Virus genome (UHGV): UHGV-0148168
Source of the DNA: a virus
Length of the DNA stretch: 13,309 nt
Reading direction: 5' to 3' (one strand)
Shown: positions 874-12,552 of the stretch, piece after piece
Layout: the number at the start of each line of letters is the position of its first letter
Numbering within the stretch: position 1 is the stretch's first letter
Translations under genes and position numbers: made by a program
Notes under the pieces: model-generated
The model's database searches: none
What the model was told of the DNA's origin: nothing
The model's input: only the letters and a program-made list of their open reading frames with translations

Positions 874-894
874 AACAATCTCCCCATTTAACCA

Positions 895-920
895 ACAAGA
901 CTACTATACCATAGTCTTGT
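895..920 (-). repeat. Perfect inverted repeat (9-bp arms ACAAGACTA / TAGTCTTGT, 8-nt loop) in the gene 41-dmd intergenic region; predicted mRNA stem-loop
   Basis: Read directly: plus 895..903 acaagacta and 912..920 tagtcttgt are reverse complements. Located between the gene 41 stop (932) and the dmd Shine-Dalgarno. No U-tract follows on the transcribed strand. Confidence 0.6.
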
Positions 921-931
921 CAGCTTGTAAA

Positions 932-2359
932 CTAAAATTTTAATTCATTTGCCAAAGCATCTAACTGAGCTCGAGTGGATTCATTTCTTTGATAGCGATT
1001 CTGCTCAGCCTGAATCTGCTGTGAACCTGCTACTTCACTCACTTCAGTTGGAGTAGAATCTTGTTCAATTTCTACCCATTTTTGATTTCCTTTTTGAACA
1101 CCCATCAAAAACTTATTCCACTTATTCTTATCGCCATATCGTGATTTGATTTGCTTAATAAGTTGTTGTTCAGCAGCTGCTAGCTCCTCGGTTTCAATGA
1201 CCGCAAGCATAAAATCAGCTGTTGCTGGAAGACCAGCAGATTCTGCAATATCGCTCATGTTAACATCGGAAGAGTCCCAAGCTTGTTTACCAACCTGTGC
1301 TGCAGTCCAAAGAACAGTTTCGGTTTCAACAGCCAGAGCACGCAATTCCTCTGCAATAGCTTTAACAGTTGTGTAACTATTTTCTGAATAAACTCTAATA
1401 CGGCAAGATTTACAAATACCTAGATAGTCGACAATAATGATTGTTGGAACAAAATTCTTCTTGAGCTTTAATTCATTTAAAAGTGATCGAAATGTATTAG
1501 CGTCTGCTCCACCAGTAGGATATTGCTTAACGATTAAACGACCAAGGGTAGATTTCTCACGCCATTTTTCCATTTTTCCTTTATACTCAGCGTAAGAAAT
1601 ATGTCCATCATCAATATCGTCAAGAGAAACATCGAGCATGTTAGCATCAATACGTTTAGCACAGACTTCTTCTGCCATTTCCATGGAGATATAAAGAACG
1701 TTATGACCAAGCTGCAAATAATCTGCTGCTAATGAACAAAGTCCTAATGATTTACCAACGTTAACGCCAGCCATTAAAACGTTCAGTGTTCCAGTCTCAG
1801 CTCCGCCTTTAGTAATTTTGTTTAGAATTCTGAGTTTAAATGGAACCTTACGAGCTTTATTCATATAAGATAGCCAACGTGCTTCATAGTCATCCATCCA
1901 ATCATGACCAACGTAGCTATCAAATGAAATTGATAATGCTTGACGCATAATGTCAGGAATAGCACCAACATCCGGCATTTTCTTATTTCGTTTTTCCGGA
2001 GGAAGCTCAGCATTAGTTTGAATTTCGATTATTTTAGACGTAGCATTAAACATCGCCCTTTGCTGAACATATTTTTCTGTTTCTTTTATTAACCAACTGT
2101 GATCTTCCGGAGAATCAGTCAGTTTTGAAATAAGTGTTTTTACACCAGAATATTCTGTTTCAGTAAATGAACTATTTTCTAATGCAACATTTAACGCATT
2201 AATAGATGGAACGCTATGATACTCATTAACATGAGATTTAATTAATTTGAATGTATTTTTAGCTGGACCACTTTCAAAATATTCTGAATCCATATATGGC
2301 CAAACTTTTGAAAAATAAGCTTGATCAAATATGAGATGAGAAAGAATAATTTCTACCAC
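932..2359 (-). CDS. 41: Gene 41 replicative DNA helicase (DnaB-like, primase-helicase component), 475 aa; apparent GTG start
   Basis: Walker A motif GVNVGKS. Length 475 aa and N-terminus MVEIILSHLIF match T4 gp41 as I recall it. The first codon is GTG (plus 2357..2359 = cac) with a strong AAGGAG Shine-Dalgarno 5 nt upstream. Confidence 0.9.
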   Translation of the reverse strand: MVEIILSHLIFDQAYFSKVWPYMDSEYFESGPAKNTFKLIKSHVNEYHSVPSINALNVALENSSFTETEYSGVKTLISKLTDSPEDHSWLIKETEKYVQQRAMFNATSKIIEIQTNAELPPEKRNKKMPDVGAIPDIMRQALSISFDSYVGHDWMDDYEARWLSYMNKARKVPFKLRILNKITKGGAETGTLNVLMAGVNVGKSLGLCSLAADYLQLGHNVLYISMEMAEEVCAKRIDANMLDVSLDDIDDGHISYAEYKGKMEKWREKSTLGRLIVKQYPTGGADANTFRSLLNELKLKKNFVPTIIIVDYLGICKSCRIRVYSENSYTTVKAIAEELRALAVETETVLWTAAQVGKQAWDSSDVNMSDIAESAGLPATADFMLAVIETEELAAAEQQLIKQIKSRYGDKNKWNKFLMGVQKGNQKWVEIEQDSTPTEVSEVAGSQQIQAEQNRYQRNESTRAQLDALANELKF

Positions 2360-2368
2360 ACTTACTCC

Positions 2369-2707
2369 TTAAAAGAATTTAAATTTTTTCTTTGACCTTT
2401 TATTAAATGCATCTTGCAGTTGCATTGTAATACATTTTTCTACATGAGGAGCTAACTCAGCTTTTCTTTCTTGGTCAAGAACAGCAAAGTCCATTACAAC
2501 CTTTCCATCAACCCAATCCAGTTTAGTTACATACACTATATGTGTAGAACCATCTTCTAGTTTAATGACAATCTCCTGGATAACATTTTCCATAGCGGAT
2601 TTAATTATCTTAAGAGACTCATTAAAAAGACGTTCTTTTCTTTCTTCTTCCCCCTCCGAAGAGGGGGATTCATCGATAATTTCTAAATCTAAATCATCTT
2701 TACTCAT
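2369..2707 (-). CDS. 40: Gene 40-like protein (T4 gp40, head vertex assembly chaperone); most likely ATG start at 2707 (112 aa), with the track's 118-aa version starting at a GTG at 2725
   Basis: Position between uvsX and gene 41 as in T4. The ATG at 2707..2705 overlaps the last uvsX codons; the track's first codon is GTG. The start choice is uncertain; identity rests on synteny only. Confidence 0.55.
   Translation of the reverse strand: MSKDDLDLEIIDESPSSEGEEERKERLFNESLKIIKSAMENVIQEIVIKLEDGSTHIVYVTKLDWVDGKVVMDFAVLDQERKAELAPHVEKCITMQLQDAFNKRSKKKFKFF
2650..2667 (-). other. GC-rich RNA hairpin CCCCCUC-UUCG-GAGGGGG (7-bp stem, UUCG tetraloop) inside the 5' coding region of gene 40, 32 nt downstream of the uvsX stop
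   Basis: Read directly: plus 2650..2656 ccccctc, 2657..2660 cgaa, 2661..2667 gaggggg. On the mRNA strand this is a perfect stem with a UUCG loop and encodes SPSSEGE in the gene 40 frame. Confidence 0.7.
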
Positions 2708-3881
2708 TAAATTCTTCCATATCACTTAACTGCTCGAGGTCAGTTTCTAAATCAGCTGCTGATTTACTTTTACTTTCTGGAGATTTAAATTTTTCAACCT
2801 TTGAGTTAATCAATTCATCAACTTCAGCTTCAACAATTTCATTACTATCAATAGCACCTAACTGATAAGCACGTTTAATAGCATCTCGGAATGGTTGATG
2901 CTTAAATAAAGGACCCCAGAATGTAGTGCAGTTGGTATCTTTTGCACGCCAAGATTTTTCTTCGCGAATCATCTCGCCGGTTTCTTCATCAAGAAATTCA
3001 CGAGCATACCAGCCATTTTTAGGTTTTACTACAAATCCTAATTCTAGAGCCATATCTAACAATCCAGAATAAGGATCGATACCACCGTCAAATTTAACAT
3101 CAATAAAGAATTTACTTTTTTCTTTAACGGTACGAGATTTTTCTACATTTAGAACAAATTGATACCCCTGAAGATCAGAACCATCTTTAATCTGACGCTT
3201 ACCGATAATGAATACAGTATCAGCTGAATACATTACGCCTGTACCACCTGTCATCACGGTTTTACTAAACATTTCAATGGTTTCAATTGTATGGTTAACC
3301 GCAACGCACGGAATATTTTTAATGCTAAAATAAGGAGTAACAATACGGAATAATGACTTCAGTGATTTAGCACGAGTCATATCTGCCACAGATTTTTCAT
3401 TCAAGGCATCTTCCGTTTCTTTCTTAGAAGCCATATTACCAATTGAGTCGATGAATACAATAACCTTTTCACCACGCTCAATAGCTTCAAGCTGATTCAC
3501 CATATCAATTTTCAGCTGTTCAACTGACTGGATTGGTGTATGAATTACTCGTTCCGGGTCAACTCCCATGGATCGCAAATAAGCTGGAGTAATACCAAAT
3601 TCGCTATCATAGAATAGACAAACTGCATCAGGATATTTGTTCAAATACGCTGCAACCATAGTCAAAGACATATTTGATTTAAAGTGTTTAGAAGGCCCTG
3701 CGAAAATAGTTAAACCAGACTGCATTCCACCATCAATCGCACCGGAAATAGCGATATTAAGCATTGGGATTTTTGTACGGATTACATCCTTTTCATTAAA
3801 GAATTTAGATGTAGTCAGTTCAGCAGTCATTTTAGAAGTGGAAGCTTTAATCAAACGGGATTTTAAATCTGCAATAGACAT
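2700..3881 (-). CDS. uvsX: UvsX recombinase (RecA/Rad51 homolog), 393 aa
   Basis: RecA-type Walker A GPSKHFKS. Length and N-terminal sequence MSIADLKSRLIKASTSK match T4 UvsX as I recall it (about 391 aa). Lies between the glycosyltransferase gene and gene 40 as in T4. Confidence 0.92.
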   Translation of the reverse strand: MSIADLKSRLIKASTSKMTAELTTSKFFNEKDVIRTKIPMLNIAISGAIDGGMQSGLTIFAGPSKHFKSNMSLTMVAAYLNKYPDAVCLFYDSEFGITPAYLRSMGVDPERVIHTPIQSVEQLKIDMVNQLEAIERGEKVIVFIDSIGNMASKKETEDALNEKSVADMTRAKSLKSLFRIVTPYFSIKNIPCVAVNHTIETIEMFSKTVMTGGTGVMYSADTVFIIGKRQIKDGSDLQGYQFVLNVEKSRTVKEKSKFFIDVKFDGGIDPYSGLLDMALELGFVVKPKNGWYAREFLDEETGEMIREEKSWRAKDTNCTTFWGPLFKHQPFRDAIKRAYQLGAIDSNEIVEAEVDELINSKVEKFKSPESKSKSAADLETDLEQLSDMEEFNE

Positions 3882-3934
3882 TCATTTTTTCCATAGGCAT
3901 CATTATATTTTCCTCACTGGTTAAAGATAGAGTA

Positions 3935-3958
3935 ATTATAACACAATAAATTTAGGCA
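3935..3958 (-). promoter_or_regulatory. Candidate promoter for uvsX: extended -10 TGTTATAAT (3943..3935) with an upstream MotA-box-like TGCCTAA (3958..3952)
   Basis: Minus strand reads TGCCTAAATTTATTGTGTTATAAT about 50 nt before the uvsX ATG: a perfect TATAAT with a TGn extension, and a TGCTT-like element near -30. uvsX is a middle-mode gene in T4 (established knowledge). Confidence 0.35.
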
Positions 3959-4801
3959 TTAATCAACTGCTATTGGATGAATAGCATTAAACTTATGAAA
4001 TGCTTCTGATTTTTCTTTACGCGAAACACACATGCGAAGAACCTTTAATGGTTCATCTTCTTCACCCAACGATTTTCGTTTTTCAATATTAGAAGTTTTC
4101 CAACGAGCTTGCTCTGGAAACTCTCTATTGATTTGCTCAAGCGCTCTATTATGTTTAGAATTACTACGAATTGAACTACATCCACCGGGAGCGTGTGATT
4201 TTCCAGATACAACTAGATATTTGAACAAGGCCAAATGCGGATAACCTTGATTAATTAAATTGAGAAATGCATACATATCTTCGCATAAATCAATTTTTCC
4301 ATACCCAATTTGTTCTGTCGTAAGTTTTCCGAGGTCATACCATGTATTCGTGAATCCATATGAGTTTTCACGATAATTACCCCAAGATGAAGTAATTTTA
4401 AAAATTGGTAGACGAGCATGACCGTGATAATACCCGCAATCCATGGCATCTTCAACATATTGAATCAATTCATAGAACTGTTCACGAGTTAATTGATTAA
4501 TTTTATCTACGCGCCGTTTATCGTCTCTCTTTCGTATTGAACTCATACGAATAGTAGTATCATCATCAATCATCCATATTCGTTGACCTGCATACATATC
4601 AGTAATTGCTTTACGAGTACCGGAAATTCCATTAACATCATCAGGAATAGTTACAATTTTAGCTCTAGACCCATAAGCATCATAATAAGCTTTTTCTTCG
4701 TGTTCACGCACTACAATATGGGGTTCATAATCAGTCGGAAACATATCAAGGGCAGAAACTGCCCCTACACGCTGATAACTTGGAATTACGAATTGAATCA
4801 T
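3959..4801 (-). CDS. Putative DNA-modifying glycosyltransferase of GT-A type, 280 aa, at the locus where T4 carries beta-glucosyltransferase
   Basis: N-terminal FVIPSYQR followed about 75 residues later by WMIDDD (DxD) is the GT-A fold signature. T4 beta-gt is 351 aa and GT-B, and does not resemble this. Placement between uvsX and gene 42 suggests a hydroxymethylcytosine glucosylation enzyme such as the T2/T6-type beta-glucosyl-HMC-alpha-glucosyltransferase (uncertain recall). Confidence 0.5.
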   Translation of the reverse strand: MIQFVIPSYQRVGAVSALDMFPTDYEPHIVVREHEEKAYYDAYGSRAKIVTIPDDVNGISGTRKAITDMYAGQRIWMIDDDTTIRMSSIRKRDDKRRVDKINQLTREQFYELIQYVEDAMDCGYYHGHARLPIFKITSSWGNYRENSYGFTNTWYDLGKLTTEQIGYGKIDLCEDMYAFLNLINQGYPHLALFKYLVVSGKSHAPGGCSSIRSNSKHNRALEQINREFPEQARWKTSNIEKRKSLGEEDEPLKVLRMCVSRKEKSEAFHKFNAIHPIAVD

Positions 4802-5439
4802 TTAAGTGCCTTACATTTGTCAAAATGGTATCTTGTCATATTTGGCCCACGTCCTTTTAGTCCGCAATGCGGACATATTTTTTCTATCAAATTATGAGGT
4901 TTTCCTTTACGATTTTTAGACATCGTTTCTTTAATTATTTTAGCTTTTTCTGCGCCAAAAATTTCTTCATAAGTTTTACCAGAATTTTCCTTTGCTCGAT
5001 TTATAATTCCATATGCCTGCTCATTTTTACCATACATTGGATTACCTTCGCCTTTCATTCTTTTAGAATGATCAGGACGCTTGATTCCACGAAAGGCATT
5101 TCCGCACTTATATCTTTCTTCTGGAGATAGTTTTTTACCGTACATTCCATTTAATTTGCCTGGAAAACTTCCTCCCCATGCTTCATTCTTTAAATTATAT
5201 GAATCCGGACAATTAGCAGCATCTAAACAAGTTAAAATAATTTCTTCAACCTGTCTAAACATTGGTCCTTCATATAATATTTCTTTATTAAAGGATTTTA
5301 TTCCATATTTCTTTTTAGCATGTTGCCAAACTACACCCGAACCATCATAATTTGGGTTGTGACCATCATGACTTCCTATATACCACTTTTTAGTTTTAGG
5401 ATGTTTATACTTATAAACATGTGGCACATTTACTTCCAT
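4798..5439 (-). CDS. GIY-YIG family homing endonuclease (Seg-like), 213 aa, with NUMOD-like repeats and a C-terminal CxxC zinc-finger-like motif
   Basis: N-terminal VYKYKHPKTKKWYIGS fits the GIY...YIG motif. Repeated G-x-YGK/basic modules (NGMYGKK, NPMYGKN) and C-terminal CPHCG...DKC. The start overlaps the gene 42 end by 10 nt and the stop overlaps the glycosyltransferase start (ATGA), with no own promoter; typical of free-standing phage homing-endonuclease genes. Confidence 0.7.
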   Translation of the reverse strand: MEVNVPHVYKYKHPKTKKWYIGSHDGHNPNYDGSGVVWQHAKKKYGIKSFNKEILYEGPMFRQVEEIILTCLDAANCPDSYNLKNEAWGGSFPGKLNGMYGKKLSPEERYKCGNAFRGIKRPDHSKRMKGEGNPMYGKNEQAYGIINRAKENSGKTYEEIFGAEKAKIIKETMSKNRKGKPHNLIEKICPHCGLKGRGPNMTRYHFDKCKALK

Positions 5440-7110: not shown

Positions 7111-7131
7111 AAAAAGGGACCCGGAGGTCCC
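7111..7131 (-). terminator. Rho-independent terminator after gene 43: GGGACC-UCCG-GGUCCC hairpin followed by UUUUU
   Basis: Plus 7116..7131 gggacccggaggtccc is a perfect 6-bp inverted repeat with a 4-nt loop. On the minus strand it is followed by TTTTT (7115..7111). Begins 13 nt after the gene 43 stop codon. Confidence 0.8.
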
Positions 7132-7144
7132 TAGATTTATTCTA

Positions 7145-9880: not shown

Positions 9881-9899
9881 GATATATTATACTCCAAAT

Positions 9900-9917
9900 A
9901 AGGGGCCGAAGCCCCTT
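9900..9917 (-). other. GC-rich UUCG-tetraloop hairpin AAGGGGC-UUCG-GCCCCUU, starting 2 nt after the regA stop codon
   Basis: Plus 9900..9906 aaggggc, 9907..9910 cgaa, 9911..9917 gcccctt. Perfect 7-bp stem; the loop reads UUCG on the mRNA. Followed by UAUUUGGAG and a TATAAT at 9891..9886. Confidence 0.75.
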
Positions 9918-9919
9918 GC

Positions 9920-10288
9920 TTAATTACCAATCGTATATTTAGGAACGAGTTTCCATTCATGTTTTTGTTTAAAAGAAATAACTCGGAAGTTATTAGTTAA
10001 ATCTTTCATAAAAGTTCTTTGACCAGGAACGATTTCAATCAGTCCCCAATCTTCTAACAACCATGCTATTGAATCACGACGAACTTCATCTTCTTCTGTC
10101 ATTTCAACTTGGCGACCATCCATACGAAGCATTTCTTTAAAATGAACGATATAGTATAGTCCTTTTTTCTGAAGAATATGACAGGACTGATACAGAACTT
10201 TATCTTTATTATTAGCAATTCCCATACGAGTCAAAGTTTCTTTTACTTTCAGAAAATCTTCAGGTTTTTTAAGAGTAATTTCAATCAT
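9920..10288 (-). CDS. regA: RegA translational repressor of early genes, 122 aa
   Basis: 122 aa equals T4 RegA. Position between genes 62 and 43 as in T4. The ATG lies 1 nt after the gene 62 stop (TAA-A-ATG). Confidence 0.85.
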   Translation of the reverse strand: MIEITLKKPEDFLKVKETLTRMGIANNKDKVLYQSCHILQKKGLYYIVHFKEMLRMDGRQVEMTEEDEVRRDSIAWLLEDWGLIEIVPGQRTFMKDLTNNFRVISFKQKHEWKLVPKYTIGN

Positions 10289-11814: not shown

Positions 11815-11848
11815 AATTTCCTCATTCAAGTTTTAGTGTAAATTATAA

Positions 11849-11862
11849 AGGGCCGAAGCCCT
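11849..11862 (-). other. UUCG-tetraloop hairpin AGGGC-UUCG-GCCCU (extendable to 7 bp with a G-U pair), 3 nt after the gene 45 stop codon
   Basis: Plus 11849..11853 agggc, 11854..11857 cgaa, 11858..11862 gccct. On the mRNA it reads AGAGGGCUUCGGCCCUUU and is followed directly by UAUAAU (11847..11842), then the gene 44 Shine-Dalgarno. Confidence 0.7.
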
Positions 11863-11865
11863 CTA

Positions 11866-12552
11866 TTAAAAATCATGGGTAGAATCAGCTTCAAGAGCTA
11901 CTACATAATTCGCATGTTCACCTTCAAATTTAGCAGCGCCTTGTTTACCTTTTGCCCAGAGCAGAAGTTTATAATTTCCTGGTTGCATTTTCATATTTGC
12001 CATATTGATAATGAAATTAAATGTATTTTCACCATCGTAATCACCAAGAGTCAAAGAATATTTAACACGTGTCAAAGCAGAATCTTCTACTTTATTAAAA
12101 CCGTTAATTACGATTTTACCTTCTTTTACCGTGATAGCAATTGTATCAATTTGCAGACCACGAGATACACGCAACAGCTGTTGAAGGTCTTCAGCTTTAA
12201 TTTCGGTAACAACAGATGCTACCGGGAATGGAATTGGTTTATTAGGAGCAACTACTGTACTCGGATCGGCTGCTGGCCAAAAAATTGTTGAGCGTGCATC
12301 AGCAATTTTAATATTTCCATCTTCTGACTGGGAAATTTCTGCATCATCATTAACTAGAGACAGAATACCGAGAAAACCGTTCAAATCGTAAATTGCTACA
12401 TCAAAATCAATAACGTCAGAAATATTTGCTTCCGCATAAGTTGTACCATTAACTGCGCGAGTCATAATAAATTGACCTGATTTAAGCATAATGCCAGAGT
12501 TAATAGTAGCGAAATTTTTCAAAATATTCAGTGTGTCTTTAGATAATTTCAT
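11866..12552 (-). CDS. 45: Gene 45 sliding clamp (PCNA-like processivity factor), 228 aa
   Basis: 228 aa equals T4 gp45 and the N-terminus MKLSKDTLNILKNFATINSG matches my recollection. Sits upstream of 44/62 as in T4. The ATG overlaps the stop of the upstream ORF (ATGA). Confidence 0.9.
   Translation of the reverse strand: MKLSKDTLNILKNFATINSGIMLKSGQFIMTRAVNGTTYAEANISDVIDFDVAIYDLNGFLGILSLVNDDAEISQSEDGNIKIADARSTIFWPAADPSTVVAPNKPIPFPVASVVTEIKAEDLQQLLRVSRGLQIDTIAITVKEGKIVINGFNKVEDSALTRVKYSLTLGDYDGENTFNFIINMANMKMQPGNYKLLLWAKGKQGAAKFEGEHANYVVALEADSTHDF

Follow-up and report, generated by a model that had tools for sequence, protein, structure and literature searches.

The locus studied here raises the question of why a very stable RNA hairpin lies inside the called reading frame of gene 40, shortly after the stop codon of uvsX, and which gene it serves. 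We analyzed a window of 13,309 nucleotides, which is the whole stretch of virus genome UHGV-0148168 under study. The window belongs to a Tequatrovirus, and its uvsX-40-41 region is 98% identical to that of T4 and 99.6% identical to that of Escherichia phage PinkRuby. A sequence-only reading of this DNA had offered two alternatives, namely a stability or processing element together with a gene 40 start further downstream, or a structure that throttles the translation of gene 40. We consider, with a probability of about 0.65, that the hairpin acts in the uvsX-40-41 transcript as an RNA element by which a 3' end immediately downstream of uvsX is set and shielded.

Direct reading of the minus strand confirmed the hairpin CCCCCUC-UUCG-GAGGGGG that had been placed at 2650-2667. 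This is the 7-bp G/C-rich core of a stem that reaches 8 bp, with 6/8 G-C pairs, by one extending U-A pair (Table 1). The order along the minus strand is GAUGAA, UCCCCCUC, UUCG, GAGGGGGA and AGAAGAAAG, and the AU-rich sequence GAUUUAGAUUUAGAAAUUAUC adjoins the hairpin on its 5' side. The ORF ends confirmed the claimed distance of 32 nt between the uvsX stop and the core. The hairpin was also said to lie in the first 20 codons of gene 40, and it indeed occupies nt +40 to +59 of that frame, corresponding to codons 14-20 (S P S S E G E). The ATG of gene 40 (2707..2705) overlaps the end of uvsX (AUGAGUAA). As had been noted, the other two UUCG hairpins of the window sit just past stop codons; these proved to be the stops of regA and gene 45.

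Table 1. Features of the window (one row per feature) and stems found at the same place in relatives
Feature	Position	Strand	Sequence	Basis or remark
RNA hairpin	2649..2668	-	UCCCCCUC-UUCG-GAGGGGGA	direct reading, MFE/centroid fold
Hairpin, 5' arm	2668..2661	-		
Hairpin, loop	2660..2657	-	UUCG	
Hairpin, 3' arm	2656..2649	-		
C(UUCG)G motif	2661..2656	-	CUUCGG	motif match; C-G closing pair, Watson-Crick stem
A/G-rich tail	2630..2648	-	AAGAAGAAAGAAAAGAACG	without U tract; adjoins hairpin 3' side
uvsX (393 aa)	2700..3881	-		ORF list; annotated UvsX in T4; stop 2702..2700
Gene 40 (112 aa, head vertex assembly chaperone)	2369..2707	-		ORF list, T4 annotation
Gene 41 (primase-helicase, GTG start; cistron downstream)	932..2359	-		ORF list, T4 annotation
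Next most stable fold	4771..4742	-		TAGT-family glycosyltransferase gene, nt +31..+60; 27 nt past upstream ORF stop
Next most stable fold	7132..7115	-		hairpin + U run after gene 43
Next most stable fold	921..894	-		hairpin just past gene 41 stop
CUUCGG hairpin	9922..9895	-		also among the next most stable folds; motif 9906-9911; directly after regA stop
CUUCGG hairpin	11866..11845	-		also among the next most stable folds; motif 11853-11858; directly after gene 45 stop
Stem, Tequatrovirus and Karamvirus			CCCCCUC / GAGGGGG	loops UUCG, UAAG or UCAG
Stem, Mosigvirus			CCCCUUC-UUCG-GAAGGGG	loop UUUG in one contig
Stem, Jiaodavirus			UCUCCCUC-GGAA-GAGGGAGA	
Stem, Roskildevirus			CCUCCCC-UUCG-GGGGAGG	
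Stem, Dhakavirus and Mosugukvirus			GAGGGUC-CUAGU-GACCCUC	
Stem, Kanagawavirus			GAGGGCC-CUAGU-GGCCCUC	U·G intermediate in locus L032
Stem, locus L047			AGAGGGUCA-CUA-UGACCCUCU	
Stem, locus L036				extended version, 12 bp
Stem, Gaprivervirus			UGCGGAGGGAGC-UAAG-GCUCCUUCUGUA	three G·U pairs
Stem, Tegunavirus			GAGGCUCC-GAAA-GGAGCUUC	
Stem, locus L037			GGAAUCCUC / GAGGAUUCC	
Stem, locus L041			GGAGUCCUC / GAGGACUC	compensatory A-U to G-C change relative to L037

When folded within 141 nt of surrounding sequence, the hairpin was present in the MFE structure as well as in the centroid structure, and within 401 nt each of the seven core pairs formed with a probability of at least 0.998. Its folding energy, -16.7 kcal/mol, makes it the most stable 30-nt window on both strands of the whole 13.3 kb, across which the energies of 30-nt folds have a mean of -2.3 and a standard deviation of 2.2 kcal/mol. 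A scan of the whole window against Rfam 15 gave no family match at the gathering score, and the late-promoter motif TATAAATA occurs nowhere in the window. The first 50 kb of T4 contain 17 hairpins of -12 kcal/mol or lower on the transcribed strand. Like layouts are seen in T4 nrdG, with a hairpin at nt +37..+60 and 26 nt past the mobC stop, and in T4 segF, with a hairpin at nt +46..+65 and 35 nt past the gene 56 stop. The window itself has a second instance at 4771..4742 (Table 1). A strong hairpin 26-38 nt past a stop codon and inside the next, overlapping gene may be a general device of T4-like genomes.

Two explanations look elsewhere than to RNA, namely that the repeat is a chance by-product of the encoded peptide, or that it is a DNA palindrome acting as a protein-binding site or cruciform; together we regard them as extremely improbable. 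As for the peptide, codons 14, 15, 17, 18 and 19 are TCC, CCC, TCG, GAG and GGG, whose shares of their synonymous families in the window's genes are 7%, 4%, 6%, 14% and 7%, respectively. Given the peptide, the probability of this codon choice is approximately 7e-7, and only 2 of 20,000 synonymous recodings (same peptide, weighted by codon usage) reached the observed energy. Every stem design found in relatives falls in the top 0-7% of its protein-preserving recoding nulls. These rare codons and nulls reject a by-product of the peptide. Acinetobacter phages (Hadassah- and Lazarusvirus) encode a related N-terminal peptide, GPSG, with non-pairing codons and no hairpin. The earlier judgment that the element is very unlikely by chance therefore holds, on the grounds of the rare codons, the recodings and the energy rank. 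Within Tequatrovirus alone, six silent sites in the hairpin were unchanged versus about 8 of 31 variable in the flanks, in a rough unscripted count that is too weak for significance. We conclude that the feature exists, did not arise at random and has a function as RNA.

We compared loci from a phage collection and from IMG/VR. A hairpin was found at the same place in approximately 45 loci, from about nine named Tevenvirinae genera (Tequatro-, Mosig-, Karam-, Jiaoda-, Roskilde-, Dhaka-, Mosuguk-, Kanagawa-, Gapriver- and Tegunavirus) and from unnamed viral contigs of IMG/VR. Within the roughly 1 kb around gene 40, no other 30-nt window folds more stably in nearly all of the Tevenvirinae loci. 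The hairpin lies 38-61 nt into gene 40 and roughly 30-60 nt past the uvsX stop, the latter range including a few unreliable automatic stop calls. The stems follow at least seven designs (Table 1), with compensatory changes, G·U pairs and differing encoded peptides (SPSSEGE, TPSKEGE, ESPSEEGD, SSPSGEA, EGPSDPR, EGPSGPQ, EGHYDPL, EGAKAPS, EAPKGAS and EESSDEDS).

The designs fall into two registers. In the first register, an ungapped alignment of 10 sequences showed all seven core pairs to be 100% paired, with double substitutions at four pairs in different lineages and one-sided variation at none; the covariation score was reached by 0 of 500 shuffles. Sequences of the second register likewise keep all seven core pairs (100% paired), and one of these pairs is U-A in five sequences, C-G in two and U·G in one. 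The change from Dhakavirus to Kanagawavirus replaces U-A with C-G, with the U·G intermediate listed in Table 1, and the change from T4 to Mosigvirus replaces C-G with U-A via two synonymous changes, CCC to CCU and GAG to GAA. A MAFFT alignment of all designs mis-aligned the arms, since an arm that is G-rich in one design can be C-rich in another, and pair counts were therefore made within designs, with cross-design comparison by script. This failure itself indicates that the pairing, not the sequence, is what is kept. Accordingly, the expectation that base-pairing might be conserved in relatives at the RNA level while the protein varies was borne out. A metagenome scan for Tequatrovirus variants found the identical hairpin only, the flanks of which varied at third codon positions. 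The same scan also gave two unrelated matches.

Conservation of this kind also bears on the DNA palindrome. On the one hand, the repeat is a perfect inverted repeat, and the antisense version of the window's hairpin is nearly as stable as the sense version (-15.8 vs -16.7). On the other hand, G·U pairs and tetraloop types make several orthologues far more stable as sense RNA, as in Gaprivervirus (-18.8 vs -9.0), locus L036 (-19.4 vs -12.9) and Tegunavirus (-14.2 vs -9.7). None of the designs was clearly more stable on the antisense strand, and the sense-strand loops include UUCG and GNRA types. The far stronger sense folds of several designs argue for an element of the mRNA, and the palindrome was rejected on this bias and on the conservation of pairing without conservation of stem sequence. 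A RegB target at GGAG was rejected as well, with GGAG being base-paired here and missing from several designs. The hairpin is thus a selected sense-strand RNA structure.

The first alternative of the sequence-only reading had coupled the stability or processing element to a downstream start of gene 40. There is no in-frame ATG, GTG or TTG between the hairpin and M39, and S31 and I34, which are invariant in 12 gp40 sequences from nine genera, lie in this interval. The part of the frame that precedes the hairpin also looks like coding sequence: its differences among Tequatrovirus copies are mostly synonymous (GAU/GAC at three codons, CUA/UUA), its sole length difference among them is an in-frame 6-nt repeat unit, and an acidic D/L-rich motif is recognizable in it across genera. 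The downstream start was therefore rejected. This half of the alternative fell, and the stability or processing half was supported, given that a conserved RNA structure accompanies the uvsX 3' end and that a 3' end is reported in T4. The annotation of Citrobacter phage CkP1, in which gene 40 begins after the hairpin, is probably wrong, and annotators should not shift the gene 40 start past the hairpin in this way. With respect to the protein, gp40 matches Pfam PF11113 at residues 42-97 and PHROG 999 at residues 10-112, and the hairpin lies outside PF11113, within a poorly conserved N-terminal extension. Judging from the poor conservation and the limits of the Pfam domain, the N-terminus of gp40 may be disordered.

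Relatives with a rearranged locus indicate which gene the element accompanies. In Yersinia phage JC221, a spacer between uvsX and gene 40 carries GGGGC-GUAAU-GCCCC followed by UUUUUU; the hairpin is upstream of the gene 40 start, gp40 is without the N-terminal extension, and gene 40 itself is hairpin-free. In the Krischvirus KFS-EC, AAGGGGC-GUUAU-GCCCCUU and UUUU lie 15 nt past the uvsX stop, followed by a homing endonuclease gene and then a short gene 40 without a hairpin. In both phages, the hairpin and U run together look like a canonical intrinsic terminator. Gene 40 has lost company with the hairpin there and is also without the N-terminal extension, whereas uvsX has kept the hairpin behind it; the element therefore belongs to the uvsX 3' end. 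In the Acinetobacter phages, a CUUCGG hairpin is found right after the gene 40 stop instead. From these arrangements, the element goes with the end of the uvsX message, or with that of uvsX and gene 40 as a pair, and does not serve gene 40.

The second alternative, in which the hairpin would hold back ribosomes on gene 40 and keep the yield of gp40 low, or would space ribosomes that re-initiate after uvsX, becomes improbable in the light of these arrangements. It would fit the location of the hairpin in the gene 40 frame, 13 codons past the start, and the conservation of the structure wherever gene 40 has the N-terminal extension. However, a hairpin starting at +40 is beyond the footprint of an initiating ribosome, and elongating ribosomes unwind hairpins of such strength. 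When uvsX and gene 40 are separated, the hairpin precedes the start of gene 40, as in JC221, or gene 40 has none, as in KFS-EC, and the Acinetobacter phages with the same type of N-terminal peptide lack it. This alternative is accordingly disfavored, both for the +40 start and for the hairpin staying with uvsX.

The element is related to several known systems. Intercistronic stem-loops can stop 3' exonucleases and thereby make the genes of one operon unequally expressed, as with REP elements in malE-malF and with the hairpins of the Rhodobacter puf operon. The present hairpin resembles them in being a stable hairpin after the more-needed cistron, with a 3' end at its base according to the T4 literature and scarcer RNA downstream, and we found the stable stem-loop just past the protected cistron to be conserved as a structure. 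It differs in that it overlaps the coding sequence of the next gene, and therefore competes with gene 40 translation, and it has no sequence relation to REP. C(UUCG)G hairpins of T4 mRNA were reportedly described by Tuerk et al. in 1988 (PNAS 85:1364) as typically intercistronic. Our hairpin shares with them the loop, the C-G closing pair, the G+C-rich stem and the setting in an AT-rich phage transcript, but it lies inside a real reading frame. Loops other than UUCG occur in other genera (UAAG, UCAG, GGAA, GAAA, CUAGU and others); the conserved feature is therefore a stable stem-loop at the site and not the tetraloop. The UUCG tetraloop was first noticed in T4 mRNA (history in PMC4371310).

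At the level of the element itself, the T4 counterpart is already known, as far as the cited summaries go, and the 3' end described in 1989 very probably belongs to it. Kim et al. 2025 (PMC12152347) place an in vivo 3' end immediately past a stem-loop, within the 358 nt that precede T4 gene 41; the stem-loop and the 3' end are shown in Fig. 5B of that paper and go back to Hinton 1989 (J Biol Chem 264:14432 and 14440). In the 358 nt of T4, the CUUCGG hairpin (-15.8) is the sole strong stem-loop, the next reaching -7.1, and hence the published stem-loop is very probably this hairpin, as judged from the T4 sequence. The hairpin and its flanks are identical in T4 (AF158101), in the same uvsX-40-41 context, and window position 2649 corresponds to about 22,329 of T4. 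We see no difference at the element level, the window being another Tequatrovirus, and it is this identity with a T4 element of reported 3' end that makes the element already known. Citing Hinton 1989, Kim et al. 2025 (PMC12152347) also state that hosts with a rho mutation (nusD) have more RNA ending there and low gene 41 mRNA and protein. In the same account, GoF(D25Y) stabilizes RNA carrying the 358-nt region, and this region confers regulated stability on a downstream reporter (PMC12152347).

The accessible T4 papers contain no discussion of the hairpin as a selected structure inside the gene 40 frame, or of other genera. The element is not mentioned in the 2010 review of T4 post-transcriptional control, and the T4 GenBank record has no feature annotated for it. 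A literature search for sequencing-based mapping of T4 3' ends returned nothing usable, and in a tblastn search with T4 GoF for a distribution shared with the hairpin, GoF diverged too fast for such a search. Covariation across genera, the association with the end of uvsX and the overprinting by gene 40 all appear to be undescribed in the literature searched.

The published 3' end could arise in more than one way. The main rival to our reading is a partial terminator or attenuator, at which RNA polymerase stops in some rounds, perhaps with Rho or NusA. It is compatible with a barrier to decay and differs only in the origin of the 3' end. The canonical intrinsic-terminator form with a U run at the equivalent site in KFS-EC and JC221 argues for it, and U-rich codons follow some of the embedded designs, with 5-6 U in the first 8 nt (Dhakavirus, Tegunavirus and loci L037 and L041). 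In addition, the amount of RNA ending here shifts in rho mutants, according to the summaries of the T4 work. The hairpin of the window and T4 is likewise G+C-rich and placed after a stop codon, but differs from intrinsic terminators in having no U tract: its 3' tail, AAGAAGAAAG, has 0 U in 8 nt. A scan of 2000-4200 with terminator and promoter consensus sequences made no call at the hairpin. Given the missing U tract and the absence of a terminator call, the barrier to 3'-5' decay is favored. Moreover, the summaries in Hinton 2010 and Kim et al. 2025 (PMC12152347) state that later work favors a post-transcriptional, RNA-stability account of the rho and goF effects. We therefore consider the attenuator unlikely, and the 3' end probably arises mainly by exonucleolytic trimming.

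A protective role at the other end of an RNA is very improbable. In this case, an endonuclease would cut the AU-rich stretch immediately before the hairpin, and the hairpin at the new 5' end would shield gene 41 mRNA from 5'-end-dependent RNase E. The AU-rich GAUUUAGAUUUAGAAAUUAUC immediately 5' of the hairpin and the regulated stability that the 358-nt region reportedly gives to a downstream reporter are in line with it. However, the published end beside the stem-loop is, as summarized, a 3' end and not a 5' end, and the element of KFS-EC and JC221 has canonical terminator form after uvsX.

Returning to the reading that we prefer, a 3' end set by the hairpin just past uvsX, a full-length uvsX-40-41 RNA would be made first. 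An early stop of transcription, or cutting followed by 3' to 5' decay of the distal 40-41 part, would then bring exonucleases to the very stable C(UUCG)G hairpin, where they would stall and leave a stable uvsX message. The trimming barrier may be combined with inefficient termination, and the 40-41 RNA would be lowered relative to uvsX. UvsX, which is needed stoichiometrically, would thereby be expressed above gp40 and the gp41 helicase. Gene 40 starts on top of the uvsX stop and leaves no intergenic space, and the hairpin is therefore placed in the N-terminal extension of gp40. In Tevenvirinae, it would have been written into this poorly constrained, acidic extension, with the peptide following the RNA structure.

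Three observations were counted against the barrier. The hairpin has to be opened by every ribosome that translates gene 40; an RNA with its 3' end at the hairpin would be a non-stop template for gene 40; and T4-like phages of Acinetobacter do without a hairpin at this place, having one past gene 40 instead.

A further, more specific proposal concerns the history of the element. We tentatively suggest, at somewhat less than even odds, that an ancestral intergenic terminator of uvsX was swallowed by the extension of gene 40 and is now a translation-sensitive switch. The ancestral form would survive in Krischvirus and JC221, while in Tevenvirinae gene 40 would have been extended back to the uvsX stop. 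In such a history, the RNA structure would be the primary target of selection, with at least seven stem designs in two registers, and would dictate the local gp40 peptide. Since translation of gene 40 melts the hairpin, the element would act as a switch: when gene 40 is translated, there would be read-through to the gene 41 helicase, and when it is untranslated, the RNA would be trimmed to a stable uvsX message. If this is true, it is at the hairpin that Rho (nusD) and GoF would exert their effects.

In summary, we found that a hairpin known from T4 is a selected RNA structure within the gene 40 frame, and that it probably marks the 3' end of the uvsX message. The element offers a natural example of RNA structure overriding protein-coding constraint, in which pairing is kept while nucleotides and amino acids change. 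It is open to synonymous mutation, for which the natural compensatory variants can serve as guides. The old rho(nusD)/goF puzzle on gene 41 mRNA would thus be pinned to one defined element. Our study provides a sequence-level account of how these phages may obtain far more UvsX recombinase than gp40 and gp41 from one unit with overlapping genes.

Among related sequences, several variants were seen both of the hairpin near the start of gene 40 and of the N-terminus of the gene 40 protein (gp40). The TTAGAT unit differs in copy number by 6 nt, in frame, between the window (2675-2698) and T4 (603-632 of L001), and accordingly gp40 carries DLDL in the window and in the closely related Escherichia phage PinkRuby, whereas T4 and most relatives carry DLDLDL. 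In an IMG/VR contig (L021, 2974573174), at about 350-380, the C run of the hairpin is one C short, which leaves a shorter stem and shifts the frame of gene 40; the missing C may reflect either a genuine frameshift or an error in sequencing the homopolymer. In the Citrobacter phage CkP1 (L004, 280-358), the annotated ATG of gene 40 lies downstream of the hairpin, and the frame upstream of this ATG is open and conserved.

In the Acinetobacter T4-like phages AbTZA1 and KARL-1, the hairpin is absent from the 5' part of gene 40. Despite the missing hairpin, gene 40 of these phages encodes a related GPSG peptide, and a CUUCGG hairpin is found instead directly 3' of the gene 40 stop codon. On a separate note, in the Krischvirus KFS-EC a small ORF lies upstream of uvsX, and the spacer separating this ORF from the DNA polymerase gene contains a very strong hairpin.

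Within the window, two CUUCGG hairpins begin at the stop codons of regA and gene 45, and neither is followed by a U run. At their intercistronic positions, these two are the counterparts of the hairpin in gene 40. The hairpin after gene 43 is followed by UUUU, and its form is that of a canonical intrinsic terminator. Another hairpin follows gene 41, and its T4 copy, at -16.3 kcal/mol, is stronger than any other hairpin within the first 50 kb of the T4 genome.

Hairpins of the window and of related phages.
Feature	Record	Position	Strand	Structure	kcal/mol	Location
Glycosyltransferase ORF	window	4742-4771	minus	CGUGUAGGGGCAG-UUU-CUGCCCUUGAUAUG	-14.2	nt +31..+60 of ORF 3959..4801
nrdG	T4 (L067, AF158101)	42857-42880	minus	strong		nt +37..+60
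segF	T4 (L067, AF158101)	16216-16235	minus	strong, GAAA loop		nt +46..+65
regA stop	window	9895-9922	minus	CUUCGG	-13.7	before gene 43
Gene 45 stop	window	11845-11866	minus	CUUCGG	-13.2	before gene 44
After gene 43	window	7115-7132	minus	AGGGACC-UCCG-GGUCCCU		13 nt past stop
After gene 41	window	894-921	minus	11 bp, GACAAGACUAU-GGUAUA-GUAGUCUUGUU	-13.8	11 nt past stop
Upstream of uvsX	KFS-EC (L068)	2588-2616	minus	12 bp, UGGCGGGUGUUG-GGUUA-CGAUACCCGCCA	-22.2	spacer
Acinetobacter phage site	AbTZA1 (L010)	610-637
Acinetobacter phage site	KARL-1 (L055)	674-693

Hairpins inside the start of a reading frame were also found beyond gene 40. The interval between gene 42 and uvsX (window 3959-5439) holds genes other than those of T4: segA and the 351-aa beta-glucosyltransferase are both absent from it, and in their place are a 213-aa ORF that matched no Pfam family and a TAGT-family glycosyltransferase of 280 aa. 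The strong hairpin inside the reading frame of this glycosyltransferase lies 27 nt downstream of the stop codon of the upstream 213-aa ORF, the same layout as that of uvsX and gene 40. In T4, the nrdG hairpin lies 26 nt downstream of the mobC stop codon, and the segF hairpin 35 nt downstream of the stop codon of gene 56. These two T4 cases suggest that a stop-proximal hairpin within the next, overlapping gene is a recurrent design.
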